The notes beneath the pieces are model-generated. The model saw nothing but the letters and a program-made list of their open reading frames with translations. It was not told where the DNA came from and searched no databases. From Thermodesulfovibrionales bacterium (GTDB lineage: Bacteria > Nitrospirota > Thermodesulfovibrionia > Thermodesulfovibrionales > SM23-35), in contig JAVHLL010000006.1 in NCBI GenBank assembly GCA_031082155.1, positions 952-64,951 on the forward strand: DNA of 64,000 bases, written 5' to 3'. This document shows, piece by piece, positions 5,038 to 36,555 of this stretch. Made by a program: the position numbers and the translations under genes. Numbering within the stretch: position 1 is the stretch's first letter; each line of letters starts with the position of its first letter.

Positions 5038-6243
5038 TTATTTCAGAATCAGATACTGAACCACCGCTCCTGCAAAAACAATTACTCCTGCCGGGATCAT
5101 CATCTTGTACATCTTCCAGAGATCAGCCTTGAAGTATTCCCTTGTCAGGATAAGACAGACATGGACCGGCGACAGAAGAACACCGATGAGCCCTGATGCA
5201 AACGCGAATGAGATTGCAGCCACAGAGGTATTTTCGGTCAGACTTATCAGAAGCGGGAATGTGCTCCCCACGAAGCCTACCGTAATCCCCGTGAGAACAC
5301 CTGAAATAAAGGGGAGCAGGAAGAGGATAGGAGAAACAGGGATATTTTCCCCCAGGAAGAATTGGCTGAGATTTCTCACTGCTCCTGAATTCTCCATCGC
5401 CTCCTTAAAAAACATCACGCCGAGTATGAGGACAATGACATCAAGGGAAAACCCGTGTCTGAATGTGGCGAGAATATTTTTCGCGCGGTAGCGGTAAAAG
5501 AAAAAGAGGAACAGAACGACCGCAATCAGGGAATAATGGAGCTCTATGCGAAAAAGCATAACGAGCAGGAGCACCGAAACGATTGGAGCGAAACTCCATA
5601 TGCCATGTGCAGACATATGCTTTTCCGCAACTGTCCCCCCTCGCAGACCGTGCATGGCAAACATGAATCCGGTGATCACGAGAAGAGCGGCATATGCAGA
5701 ATTCGCCAGGATAAGATCATAGAGCTGTATCTTCGTAATCGCGGCTGCGAGCAGAATGCCGGGATACAATGGCAGGATATATTCCCATGGGTGTCTGAAC
5801 CAGTAGTTGACAAATCCTTTCTCCTCTGGGCTCATGCGGGTATCATTCGTCGTCTCCGCAACCATTGGGGCCGAAAAGTATGCCCCGCCCACCGAGGGCA
5901 TGAGCCCGATCAGGAGGGGCATCGAGATCGTTACGATTTTGCGGTTTCGAAAGACCGTTTTTACCGTATCCATCATCAGGGCAAGGACTTTATGCTCCCT
6001 GAGGATCATCTCAAAAATTCTGATAAACGATAATGCGAGGATGAGTTTGAGGGTAACCGGATTCGTGACCGTACTCCTGCATGTAGTCCATATCTTGTCC
6101 AGGGGCATCTTATAGAGCAAAATGAGGACAGAAGCTGCGAGAAACATGACAAATCCTATATTGAGCTTCTTCCTGAGGAGAATCATTATGGCTATGAAGA
6201 CCAGGAGGAGTTTTCCCACATCATACATGCACCATTTTAGCAT
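5038..6243 (-). CDS. DUF401 family integral membrane protein
   Basis: Polytopic membrane ORF. MPLLIGLMPSVGGAYFSAPMV...SPEEKGFVNYWFRHPWEYILPLYPG matches the DUF401 pattern. I chose the ATG at 6243 because GGAG lies 9 nt upstream; the ORF-track start is 6339. Confidence 0.7.
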   Translation of the reverse strand: MLKWCMYDVGKLLLVFIAIMILLRKKLNIGFVMFLAASVLILLYKMPLDKIWTTCRSTVTNPVTLKLILALSFIRIFEMILREHKVLALMMDTVKTVFRNRKIVTISMPLLIGLMPSVGGAYFSAPMVAETTNDTRMSPEEKGFVNYWFRHPWEYILPLYPGILLAAAITKIQLYDLILANSAYAALLVITGFMFAMHGLRGGTVAEKHMSAHGIWSFAPIVSVLLLVMLFRIELHYSLIAVVLFLFFFYRYRAKNILATFRHGFSLDVIVLILGVMFFKEAMENSGAVRNLSQFFLGENIPVSPILFLLPFISGVLTGITVGFVGSTFPLLISLTENTSVAAISFAFASGLIGVLLSPVHVCLILTREYFKADLWKMYKMMIPAGVIVFAGAVVQYLILK

Positions 6244-13636: not shown

Positions 13637-13658
13637 GGTGTTCCTCCTTTTCGGCTAT

Positions 13659-13916
13659 TTATGTATCTTTTGACTGAAAACCCTGCTGCACAAGCCTCAT
13701 ACGTTGTGCCAGCTCCCTCAACGAATCGGCAAGACTCATTCCTTTATCCATGAGTTCTCTCACAACATCAGCCTTTGAAAGCTCATTTACGATTGTTTCG
13801 CTGTTTTTATCGGTCAGACAGATATTCTGCCCTGTATCAATCTGCTGGGTGATACATCCTTCTATCTGTTCTGCGGTATACTTCTTCGCAAGTTCCCTGA
13901 TCTGTTTTACGTCCAT
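13659..13916 (-). CDS. hypothetical small protein
   Basis: 85-aa ORF co-directional with and 22 nt upstream of the SOD gene. No family recognised and only a weak RBS. Confidence 0.4.
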   Translation of the reverse strand: MDVKQIRELAKKYTAEQIEGCITQQIDTGQNICLTDKNSETIVNELSKADVVRELMDKGMSLADSLRELAQRMRLVQQGFQSKDT

Positions 13917-14089
13917 AGGTATATACCAATAAGAGCAAGAGCAATGCCAGATTGCAACTGTTTGATATTATTGATATTTAATACACCTACCCGTCTTTTC
14001 ACAAGTCATTTTGCCGTACCCTGAGGACAAAATTCCCTGAGACTGTTCAACCGAAATTTGTCCAGAACAAATGATTTAGACTGCCGGAA

Positions 14090-14262
14090 AGGAATGGATA
14101 TGGCGAAATTTCTGAAGAGAGATCACGGGTAGTCTCGATGAGGCTGAAGACAAAGCGGAAGCCTCACGTATGAATTGAATAAAAACATTGCAGTCAGATA
14201 AAGGCTGGGATAAAAGCAAAGATAGTTTATCTCTCTTCAGAAATTTCGCCATATCCATTCCT
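14090..14262 (+). repeat. structured intergenic element, copy A (candidate ncRNA or PATE-like MITE)
   Basis: 14090-14123 is the exact reverse complement of 14229-14262 (34 bp). The interior shares ordered conserved blocks with 25342-25506 and 20004-20129. Confidence 0.7.
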
Positions 14263-14351
14263 CAGAATATTTTGGAAAACCATGAATTTGTATATAATGA
14301 TTAAAGCATACAGTATCATACTGCTTACAGCCTTGCAGGCAAGGAGGATAT

Positions 14352-14984
14352 ATGGACGCCAAAGAAAAAGCTCTGGAGATTATCAAACGGTTAAGAAAGG
14401 AGTATCCTGAATTGAAAACAGTCCTTCAGTTCGGCAATCCCTTCGAACTTCTTGTTGCAACAATCCTCTCGGCACAGACCACAGATGTCCTTGTCAATAA
14501 AATTACTGGAAATCTTTTCAGAAAATACCGGACGATAAAGAATTATGCAGACGCACCGCCCGGAACTTTCCAGAAGGAAATCAGTTCTGTGAATTTTTAC
14601 AAAACGAAAGCAAAGAATATACAGAACACTGCAAAAATGCTGATGGAGGAATTTCACGCAACAGTGCCAAAGACCATGGAAGAACTCATACGCCTTCCCG
14701 GTGTTGCGAGGAAGACCGCGAATATCATCCTTTTCAATGCCTACGGCATAAACGAAGGGATCGCAGTGGATACCCACGTGAAGAGGCTTGCAAAAAGGCT
14801 CGGACTTACCCGGAATGAAGACCCGGTAAAAATCGAGCAGGATTTAATGAAAATCATCCCAAAAAACCAATGGGGAAACATTACCCATCTTCTCATATTT
14901 CACGGAAGGGGAATATGCCAGGCAAGAAAAACGAACCACAGCGAATGTGTTCTTTACGAGATCTGTCCTTCGCGAAATATTTGA
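14352..14984 (+). CDS. nth: endonuclease III
   Basis: 210 aa. FELLVATILSAQTTDVLVNK, the HhH-GPD region LPGVARKTANIIL, and a C-terminal 4Fe-4S Cys cluster C-x6-C-x2-C-x5-C. Confidence 0.95.
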   Translation: MDAKEKALEIIKRLRKEYPELKTVLQFGNPFELLVATILSAQTTDVLVNKITGNLFRKYRTIKNYADAPPGTFQKEISSVNFYKTKAKNIQNTAKMLMEEFHATVPKTMEELIRLPGVARKTANIILFNAYGINEGIAVDTHVKRLAKRLGLTRNEDPVKIEQDLMKIIPKNQWGNITHLLIFHGRGICQARKTNHSECVLYEICPSRNI

Positions 14985-19908: not shown

Positions 19909-20003
19909 GAATTATTTTACCTTTAAAATCACAGAATATACACCCTTTCATTGATCCTTGGCAAGGAGGCAGACCTGTTTCAAATAACTATTTCTACCTA
20001 CTA

Positions 20004-20129
20004 GGAATTTATGGGACATGGCTCAATCTCCGAATCGAACCCACTGACAACTTCGATGAGACCGAAGACGACGCTCAGGTTCCCGGGGCTTATCAGGTTT
20101 CCATGATATGCCGGCATGCCCGAATTACC
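20004..20129 (+). repeat. structured intergenic element, copy C (shorter, more diverged)
   Basis: Core TTCGATGAGACCGAAGACGACGC at 20051-20074. It sits between imperfectly complementary arms ggaatttatgggacatgg (20004-21) and ccatgatatgccggcatgcccgaattacc (20101-29). Confidence 0.4.
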
Positions 20130-20277
20130 TTGACTAATTTCTTCAGCACATGATAAGGTACTAATAAGATTTTAGAAGTTTTTGCGTTCACAGAAGGCCA
20201 CAAAGACTTTTAGCTTTGTGGCTTTTTTTTATTGAGTCCTTCTGAGATTTTAGTTTATAGATAAGGAGGTAAACAAA

Positions 20278-25179: not shown

Positions 25180-25341
25180 CGGTGTCCTTTTTTATAAGTT
25201 CCCCTCTTCAGGAAAAGAGGGGCAGGGAGAGATTTGATCAATGAAGGGGTTTTTAAAAATCCTTTCGTTCATATCAAAATTATACCACAAGTGTTTTTTG
25301 TTCGATTGAATCATTGCCATTTGTTCAAAATAATCAGGTAT

Positions 25342-25506
25342 AGGGATAAGGCTTTATTTCCAGATAGAAATCACGGATAACCTCGATGAGATCGGAGACG
25401 AAGCATAGTTCTCAACTCTTCATAGTTCACTGCCAGAAAAGTCAGGGGAAGGTTTGCACAGAAATAGAGAGAGTTTATTTCGATTTGGAAATAAAGCCTT
25501 ATCCCT
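25342..25506 (+). repeat. structured intergenic element, copy B
   Basis: agggataaggctttatttcca (25342-62) is the exact reverse complement of 25486-25506. The interior blocks ATCACGG, CTCGATGAGATCGGAGACGAAGC and AGTCAG-GGG-AAGG are spaced exactly as in copy A. Confidence 0.7.
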
Positions 25507-25583
25507 CTGGTTCTTTCAGAAATAGTTATTCGGGGATGGTCTGAAATTGAATAAGGTCAAGAGAATCTTTTATAGTAAGTGAT

Positions 25584-36392: not shown

Positions 36393-36442
36393 GGTACCCC
36401 CTGCAGGAATTGAACCTGCGGCACCAGGTTTAGGAAACCGAT
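36393..36442 (-). tRNA. tRNA-Arg(CCT)-like 3' fragment (anticodon arm to CCA); putative att core, not an intact tRNA
   Basis: The minus strand reads TCGGT-TTCCTAA-ACCTG-GTGCC-GCAGG-TTCAATT-CCTGC-AGGGGGT-A-CCA. That gives an anticodon loop U-U-CCU-A-A, a 5-nt variable loop, a canonical T-arm, the acceptor 3' strand and an encoded CCA. The adjacent 5' side has only 21 nt and cannot form a D-arm. Confidence 0.55.
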
Positions 36443-36555
36443 TTGGCCGGGACCAAGAAGGCTTGAAAATACCTAATTTATTGCATCATATCAATAAGTT
36501 ATCATGCTTTTGCACTACGTTAAGATTTGTCGTATTTTGCCTTGTTTTGAGCTAT

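Follow-up and report, generated by a model that had tools for sequence, protein, structure and literature searches.

A perfect hairpin upstream of nth as the inner module of a probable new family of miniature inverted-repeat transposable elements in the Thermodesulfovibrionales

Introduction

What is the long, perfectly paired intergenic hairpin that precedes nth in a genome of the Thermodesulfovibrionales? The DNA considered here, referred to as the window, is a stretch of 64,000 nucleotides from a Thermodesulfovibrionales bacterium (Nitrospirota; assembly GCA_031082155.1, contig JAVHLL010000006.1, positions 952 to 64,951 of the forward strand). A first-pass annotation, made from the sequence alone, described an inverted repeat at 14090-14262 as a candidate new non-coding RNA (ncRNA) or PATE-like transposable element of the miniature inverted-repeat type (MITE), and reported two further copies in the window. 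We followed this element, hereafter copy A, through the window and through related loci in genomes and metagenomes (designated by L numbers). The hairpin of 173 bases is the invertible inner module of a MITE of ~232 bp. The best explanation, and one that we hold to be quite probable, is a new MITE family of the Thermodesulfovibrionales, in which the hairpin first noticed represents an internal module of ~165 nt.

Structure of the Transposable Unit

The inner module of copy A is bounded by a left arm at 14090-14123 (+) and a right arm at 14229-14262 (+), the latter being the exact reverse complement of the former. As first described, the arms pair at 34/34 positions (34 nt, 100% complementary) and enclose 105 nt; the predicted RNA fold of the module, 173 bases in total, reaches -80.2 kcal/mol (z = -11.6). 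Across the family, the arms follow a consensus of ~30 nt, AGGGATATGGCTCAATTTCTGAAGCnrrAT. The enclosed core consists of two dissimilar parts. Its strongly conserved 5' domain of 47 nt (ATCACGGGTAgtCTCGATGAGgctGAAGACaAAGCGGAagcCTCA; 14124-14170, + in copy A), with columns that vary little or not at all among 30 and among 82 aligned copies, contains two hairpins. In the first, h2, 14126-14129 pair with 14134-14137 (consensus CGGG-UAAY-CUCG, with an invariant G·U inside), and in the second, h3, 14139-14145 pair with 14160-14166 around a loop of 14 nt (consensus UGAGrCy-GAAGACGAAGCGGA-rGyCUCA). The A-rich 3' core of ~58 nt (14171-14228, +) is variable, apart from two blocks (AGTCAGATAAAGG and AAAGrTAGTTTAT) that are semi-conserved, and the alignment revealed no conserved pairing in it. 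One apparent alternative, in which AAGGCU pairs with h3's 3' strand, was rejected, as it tracks subfamily rather than compensation.

The boundaries originally assigned to the element enclose this inner module only, and the complete unit of copy A spans ~14052-14284. Read across the family, the unit is composed of X' (CAT..CTGTCCAAAA), a spacer of ~22 nt, an arm of 30-34 nt, the 105-nt core, the second arm, ~8 nt and X (…TATTTTGGACAGCAATG), and it is flanked on both sides by a 9-bp target-site duplication. Motif X, AATATTTTGGACAGCAATG(AT), occurs on one flank of almost every copy and always reads outward; in 31 of the 36 element-adjacent matches (36 of 45 matches overall) it is separated from the arm end by 7-10 nt, and, within the 659 kb of locus DNA that was fetched, was seen solely beside elements. 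On the opposite flank a spacer of ~22 nt, with the consensus TTTCCnGCAnGTTnAAA on the outward-reading strand across loci, is followed by an inverted second copy, X' (TTTTGGACAGATATG). The resulting outer terminal inverted repeats (CATTGYTGTCCAAAATA…/…TATTTTGGACAGCAATG) are ~20 bp long, imperfect and start with CAT; the outer termini CATTGYTGTCCAAAATA… and …TATTTTGGACAGNNATG are found at both sides, with ~13/18 matches in L075.

Directly outside X and X', two copies retain a perfect 9-bp direct repeat, namely AGTCCGAAT in L075 (unit of 234 bp) and GATGAATAT in L049 (unit of 231 bp), and a third, L070, retains a duplication matching at 8/9 positions (ATTTTCAAG/ATTTTCATG). The number of duplications of at least 8/9 expected by chance over the 27 boundaries tested is ~0.003. 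At the boundaries of the inner arms no target duplication was detected, the distribution being the same as in shuffled sequence. Only the boundary-anchored test was effective: a free search for duplicated k-mers was uninformative, with 37/76 observed vs 30.6 in controls. The outer terminal inverted repeats and the 9-bp duplications therefore define the unit as a MITE of ~232 bp.

Terminal inverted repeats in combination with target duplication likewise exclude an origin from the IS200/IS605 group. The derivatives of that group, PATEs, have no terminal inverted repeats and no target duplication, and their subterminal hairpins are recognized by a Y1 transposase. The present element resembles them as a small, non-coding, hairpin-bearing mobile repeat in which the folded single strand matters. 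Of the proposal of a PATE-like MITE, then, the second half stands, the family being multi-copy and dispersed, with terminal inverted repeats and 9-bp duplications, while the qualifier falls with the presence of both hallmarks that PATEs lack.

Copy A as a whole measures ~233 bp, its flanks having been aligned to the consensus of the two sides of the family. With its target duplication decayed, its outer limits can be placed only approximately; in length it agrees with the two copies that perfect 9-bp duplications delimit (231 and 234 bp). Side 2 (14052-14089, +) comprises X' = ccgaaatttgtccagaa, a degenerate form of CAT..CTGTCCAAAA, plus the ~22-nt spacer; side 1 (14263-14284, +) comprises X = cAGAATATTTTGGAAAACCATG, with an outward -35-like TTGGAA at 14272-14277.

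No coding capacity was found in the unit: its lone in-frame start opens a mini open reading frame (ORF) of ~10 codons with a misplaced Shine-Dalgarno sequence, and the alignment shows no codon periodicity. This mini-ORF, read by eye as MAQFLK..HG*, begins at the ATG of the arm (GATATGGCTC…) and is found at 14097-14130 of the window and at equivalent positions elsewhere. Its stop always falls in or just past the h2 loop, as TAA, TAG, TGA or the TGA of TCGATGAG. It is probably coincidental, because AGGGA sits just 1-2 nt 5' of its ATG.

Family Size and Hosts

A strict pattern of the core was found at 35 loci in a set of species-representative genomes and at 56 metagenome loci. All named hosts of the genome loci are metagenome-assembled genomes (MAGs) of Thermodesulfovibrionales/Nitrospirota, with 1 to 16 copies per MAG by the strict pattern, save for a single match, L010 (594-626), in a MAG labeled 'delta proteobacterium'. 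That match is a chance one, lying inside GC-rich coding sequence, with no arms and no match to the covariance model. The model, the construction of which the first-pass annotation had recommended, was built from 30 copies and recovers 82 full-length copies, 72 of them distinct, in the 91 loci. The family is specific to the Thermodesulfovibrionales (Nitrospirota). Many matches are situated within ~200 nt of a contig end, a sign of a multi-copy repeat that breaks assemblies.

No known family accounts for the element in Rfam, where it has no match at the gathering threshold (whole window) or at E <= 10 (13900-14500). Nothing similar was found in a plasmid collection or among viral contigs, and literature searches returned nothing on repeats in the Thermodesulfovibrionales, with searches for sequence strings giving unrelated primers only.

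Of the two other copies in the window, copy B (25342-25506) shares the core of copy A. Its arms (25342-25371 and 25477-25506) are 30 nt each with 105 nt between them, and the interior blocks reported as common to A and B, in fixed order, are borne out as a 35-nt pattern with 0 mismatches in both copies, against 0.00 expected by shuffling. The inner hairpin noted in both copies also holds: GAGGCT (14140-14145) with AGCCTC (14160-14165) in A is replaced by GAGATC with GTTCTC in B, where 5/6 pairs are kept. The perfect internal complementarity claimed for each copy, true of A, does not extend to the closing helix of B, which is 93% complementary, its non-Watson-Crick pairs being one G·T and one A·G (z = -6.6 for the RNA fold). 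The whole MITE of copy B occupies 25312-25543 (232 bp), with side 1 on the left and side 2 on the right, so that its outer frame has the genomic orientation opposite to that of copy A. A remnant of its duplication is discernible at 7/9 positions, CGATTGAAT (25303-25311) and AAATTGAAT (25544-25552), with the X' end placed by eye; copy B was outside the 27 tested, and its orthologs L031 and L091 scored 6/9 and 2/9 in the automatic duplication test.

The third copy, C (19974-20083, +), had been counted with the other two. It is truncated and retains an X'-like end (19974-19988), a left arm (20013-20041) and the first ~42-45 nt of the core, with a core match at 20052-20074 that includes 2 mismatches. 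In the part that corresponds to the module (~20013-20083) there is no right arm and no closing helix, and the rest of the core is gone; the fold is unremarkable (z = -1.1), and the copy is missed by the covariance model.

Truncated, tandem and interrupted copies also exist elsewhere in the family. In L015 (4720-4800), L023 (1745-1860) and L025 (6830-7000), unrelated sequence splits the core just past the conserved 5' domain; the inserts are a G/C-rich palindromic repeat (…CCCCCTCGCCCCCCCTTAGCTTAAGAGGGGGTTGGGGGG…) in L015 and L023 and a different one of ~110 nt in L025, and they may represent a second small mobile repeat nesting in the MITE. Solo or tandem copies of the arm near full elements (L019:120-229, L089:4864-4885 / L090:1289-1310 and L033:1579-1600) suggest partial duplications or decayed neighboring copies.

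Orientation of the Core at Orthologous Loci

Comparison of orthologous loci reveals that the inner module inverts in place. At the nth locus, the core of copy A and that of its ortholog L022 are oriented oppositely to the cores of L012, L048 and L062. With the cores placed in the same direction, L012 has flanks that are exactly reverse-complementary to those of L022 and copy A, and BLAST alignment shows that arm-core-arm alone is flipped, the sequence outside it, including X, being collinear. L048 and L062 are distant orthologs of the locus, with flanks ~77% identical, in the same state as L012. A second inverted locus is seen in the comparison of L040 with L042. Taking the family as a whole, 23 copies have the core directed at X and 12 have it directed the other way.

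Such behavior recalls the invertons, among them fimS and the polysaccharide promoters of Bacteroides, which are likewise short segments bounded by inverted repeats, found in both orientations at one locus and often situated near gene starts. Were the family made up of phase-variable invertons, the 105-nt core would be turned over between the 30-nt repeats by a site-specific recombinase of its own, switching the expression of the neighboring, in many cases divergent, genes. Breakpoints within the arms at both inverted loci and the frequency of both orientations relative to X (23:12) are in keeping with this, as are the over-representation of divergent gene pairs (28/70) and the position of all three window copies between divergent genes. 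No mixture of orientations was seen within populations: at least 9 contig pairs that are at least 98% identical and come from different samples share one orientation in every pair, and opposite orientations were seen only between genomes differing by at least 5%. Inversion thus looks slow, unlike fast phase variation. No promoter-like site was found inside the core and, because the arms are identical, its inversion leaves unchanged the 38 nt nearest the outward -35 element. Arm sequence and length vary among copies of one genome, as would not be expected of a recombinase site, and no recombinase occurs among the ten annotated window proteins near the copies. Finally, in contrast to invertons, the segment sits inside a transposon that makes target duplications, and Correia elements already provide a case of a MITE whose own repeats invert its core. 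We therefore regard a phase-variable inverton as quite unlikely, and treat the inversion as a property of the MITE.

Covariation, Wobble Bias and Conservation

The first-pass annotation pointed to compensated changes between the arms of copies A and B. Compensation is real across the 72 distinct copies: 97.2% of helix cells are standard-paired, 28/40 helix pairs change at both sides, and the covariation score is 0.406, vs 0.171 for shuffled and <= 0.093 for slid partners. The family thus has many copies with compensation present, and not the many identical, uncompensated arms by which a simple recent MITE was to be recognized. As evidence for RNA, however, the arm changes are not clean. Relative to the ortholog L022 (flanks ~92% identical), copy A displays double substitutions, GGCTCAA to GGCGAAA, that are mirrored on the other arm, and its repeat has grown outward, the left flank now being complementary to the ancestral right flank ATTCCT. 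These matched changes are just what arm-to-arm template switching, or else gene conversion, would produce, and such events are of the class that would also invert the core. Since concerted change of this kind also yields pairing, compensated arms alone are not evidence for RNA, and concerted change between the arms can explain part of the compensation.

A strand-specific excess of G·U pairs, unused in the first-pass annotation, offers support for a folded single strand. On the core strand, G·U outnumbers A·C mismatches by 72:19 in the closing helix (binomial p = 2e-8, at the level of cells), by 23:1 in h3 and by 92:1 in h2, and the bias has the same direction in both orientations of X (28:6 and 8:2). 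In h3, GC<->AU and UA<->UG<->CG changes are seen, with UA passing to UG and CG via wobble intermediates. The excess indicates that the core-sense single strand, as RNA or single-stranded DNA (ssDNA), is probably selected to fold.

Orthologous copies are well conserved. The 5' core is 92-100% identical in 9 of 12 ortholog pairs and 81-88% identical in the other three, with flanks at 71-94%; the variable 3' core is 81-98% identical between orthologs and 67% identical between random paralogs, the 5' core of which is 84% identical. At many loci the element has thus lasted long, and in most pairs its conservation equals or exceeds that of the flanks, which are partly coding.

These properties lend themselves to a reading in which the MITE carries a domesticated structured RNA: the core-sense strand would be transcribed, and RNase III would cut the ~30-bp helix and free an RNA of ~105 nt, acting in cis or trans, with the two-hairpin 5' domain as a conserved handle and the ~58-nt 3' region as a variable, locus-specific part. 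Its appeal lies in the G·U over A·C bias, which all three helices show and which goes with the core, not with the outer frame, in the stepwise wobble evolution of h3, in the identity of the 5' core relative to the flanks, and in the persistence of elements at orthologous loci. The same G·T bias would, however, be expected from the folding of ssDNA in transposition or replication. No promoter or terminator has a fixed position relative to the core, X and X' facing outward on either side of it (23:12); the orientation of the core to flanking genes is random, the variable region has no conserved pairing, and Rfam contains no match. A domesticated RNA of this kind is in our judgment unlikely, and the stand-alone ncRNA initially proposed is not upheld: besides the variable position of promoters and terminators, copies occur in all gene contexts, and the copy at nth is flipped in three related genomes.

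Genomic Context and Promoter Donation

All copies are intergenic, with 28 between divergent, 32 between tandem and 10 between convergent genes, and the core points either way (crude gene calls). The window's copy A is flanked by an Fe/Mn superoxide dismutase gene (-) and nth (+, start 14352), copy B by a radical-SAM gene (-) and mnmG (+), and copy C by a HAD hydrolase gene (-) and a cold-shock gene (+, start 20278). The generalization that all copies are in the + orientation, 5' of a + strand gene, is correct for the window but fails for the family, in which both orientations and all contexts are represented.

The same applies to a cis-regulatory leader, whether a 5' untranslated region (5' UTR) or riboswitch-like, of nth, mnmG and csp. 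Although all three cores in the window face a + strand gene at a distance of 77-200 nt, the core at the nth locus faces away from nth in L012, L048 and L062, the family is also found in '-|-' (17) and '+|-' (10) contexts, and the neighboring genes are unrelated to one another. Across the family there is no fixed 5'-UTR relation. At nth itself, a TATAAT (14293-14298) is placed between copy A and the gene, and transcription of nth thus probably starts downstream of the hairpin. A leader function is accordingly a highly improbable explanation.

The ends of the MITE may donate promoter elements to its neighbors. X carries an outward TTGGAC(A) that ends ~8 nt before the terminus, and -10-like hexamers (TAnnnT, with at least 4/6 matches) lie 15-18 nt past TTGGAC in 28/67 distinct flanks, vs ~10 expected from neighboring positions. 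In copy A, TTGGAA (14272-14277) is followed after 15 nt by the TATAAT mentioned above and then by nth, and the end of the MITE may contribute the -35 element for this gene, judging from the arrangement of the two hexamers. A consensus promoter scanner passed over the site, its spacer being outside 16-18 nt. No sigma-70-like site was found inside the core of either copy A or copy B, and the alignment contains no conserved pair of hexamers.

Two other interpretations of X were rejected. As a host-wide promoter motif it was set aside because, within the 659 kb, it is confined to the flanks of elements. As a gene start it fails in that its ATG opens a conserved ORF at one locus only (L001/L005/L043) and 1-40 codons elsewhere; at the locus represented by L043 and L056, the ATG within X appears to begin a conserved ORF of 56 codons (MIIQENxLN…).

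Evaluation and Implications

A number of observations weigh against the interpretation of the family as MITEs. Firstly, a clear duplication is kept in just 3/27 testable copies. Secondly, neither an autonomous insertion sequence sharing the termini nor a transposase that would mobilize the unit turned up in the 659 kb of fetched loci. Thirdly, no clean empty site was encountered: the sole 'empty' ortholog, L043/L056 (vs L001/L005), retains X and X', and all other ortholog sets are occupied. Fourthly, orthologous copies persist across species with flanks just 71-85% identical. This conservation, together with the G·U bias, suggests some host-level or RNA-level function beyond selfish spread; the most conservative count of that bias, by distinct column and type, is 23:13, which is not significant.

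At the seemingly empty locus, ~30 unrelated nt stand in place of arm-core-arm (L043:~5050-5110, L056:~5790-5870), with X' and X present. Rather than a naive site, it resembles one from which the palindrome was deleted, a deletion derivative of the MITE.

As a MITE, the unit would be mobilized in trans by a putative transposase that binds the outer repeats and cuts with a 9-bp stagger. Two processes probably keep the arms paired, namely exchange or template switching between the arms, by a molecular route that we infer and that would also flip the core, and selection for folding of the core-sense single strand. A read-through transcript would form a duplex hairpin of ~30 bp, which the example of Correia elements predicts to be a substrate of RNase III. 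Near the end of X, the outward -35-like TTGGACA could combine with a resident -10 to form hybrid promoters for neighboring genes, with nth as a candidate.

Several consequences would follow. The Thermodesulfovibrionales, a largely uncultured order of sulfate reducers, gain a defined MITE family and a covariance model, which should aid annotation, account for assembly breaks and provide a marker for strain typing. Housekeeping genes such as nth may also draw promoters from the family. A note of caution attaches to perfect compensation in a long closing helix, which mimics RNA covariation and is here partly the outcome of concerted evolution at the DNA level, a process that also flips the core. 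For a MITE, three traits are unusual: the nested architecture, the asymmetric, strongly conserved domain of two hairpins and the wobble bias specific to one strand. They make the family a reasonable test case for selection on mobile repeats at the level of RNA or ssDNA. A more far-reaching and doubtful idea is that the inner module is a structured RNA or ssDNA device retained by the host on the MITE, which would constitute an invertible, dispersed riboregulator family in the Nitrospirota. RNase III would then release it from the ~30-bp stem, and DNA inversion would switch its sense/antisense state relative to neighboring promoters.

Relation to Known Repeats

The Thermodesulfovibrionales MITE belongs to neither the Correia nor the bcr1 family, though it is closest to both. 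Correia elements (CREE/nemis, of Neisseria) duplicate a TA dinucleotide and possess a central IHF site. Like them, the present element is intergenic and non-coding, has a length of 100-250 bp and contains inverted repeats of ~26-30 bp that form a long hairpin; it is dispersed, variable in copy number, often just 5' of genes, furnished with putative outward promoter elements and subject to core inversion. Unlike in Correia elements, the hairpin-forming repeat is internal and nested in an outer pair of ~20-bp terminal repeats, and a conserved two-hairpin domain beside one arm contrasts with the central IHF site. The 9-bp duplication, the CAT termini and a host of another phylum further set the family apart, a separation based on architecture, duplication, termini and host. 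Correia MITEs carry promoters, have terminal-repeat hairpins that are cleaved by RNase III, and invert (PMC10969869); their co-transcribed copies are the RNase III substrates, and promoter activity and, by analogy, cleavage are predicted for the present family.

For a mobile repeat with covariation of the RNA type, the closest precedent is bcr1, a transcribed and mobile repeat of ~155 bp from intergenic DNA of the Bacillus cereus group, in which compensatory changes maintain the helices (PMC3184786). It differs in its 5-bp direct repeats, its cruciform of two independent stem-loops, and its unrelated sequence and host; inversion in place, as seen in the Thermodesulfovibrionales MITE, is not described in PMC3184786. 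The ERIC sequences of the Enterobacteriaceae (~127 bp) are similarly imperfect palindromic MITEs found in transcribed intergenic regions in either orientation, with orientation-dependent effects on mRNA decay. They differ in having TA flanks, no nested repeats, no asymmetric conserved two-hairpin domain and an unrelated sequence.

Other candidates were considered and dismissed. The motif CUCGAUGAG…GAAGAC was compared by eye with the hammerhead ribozyme, which would have GAAA after stem II, and with the k-turn (box C/D), in which the 3' strand would contain GA; neither feature is present. A retron was rejected for want of a reverse transcriptase nearby, attC for arms that are conserved rather than structure-only, and REP/RAYT for the excessive size of the element and its lack of a GTAG head.

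Further Features of the Window

Between copy C and the cold-shock gene, at 20195-20232 (+), lies a strong hairpin resembling an intrinsic terminator, GGCCACAAAG…CTTTGTGGC with T8 after it. Its role may be that of an attenuator, if csp has a long leader, or it may terminate a small transcript containing what is left of copy C. The ~415 nt between the start of the superoxide dismutase gene (13636, -) and the MITE (13637-14051) are unusually long for a compact region and hold only an ORF of 85 codons (13659-13916, -) with no Pfam match. The sole Rfam match of the window is a tRNA at 36395-36462 (-), which scores exactly at the gathering threshold (29 bits) and has a short D-arm region.

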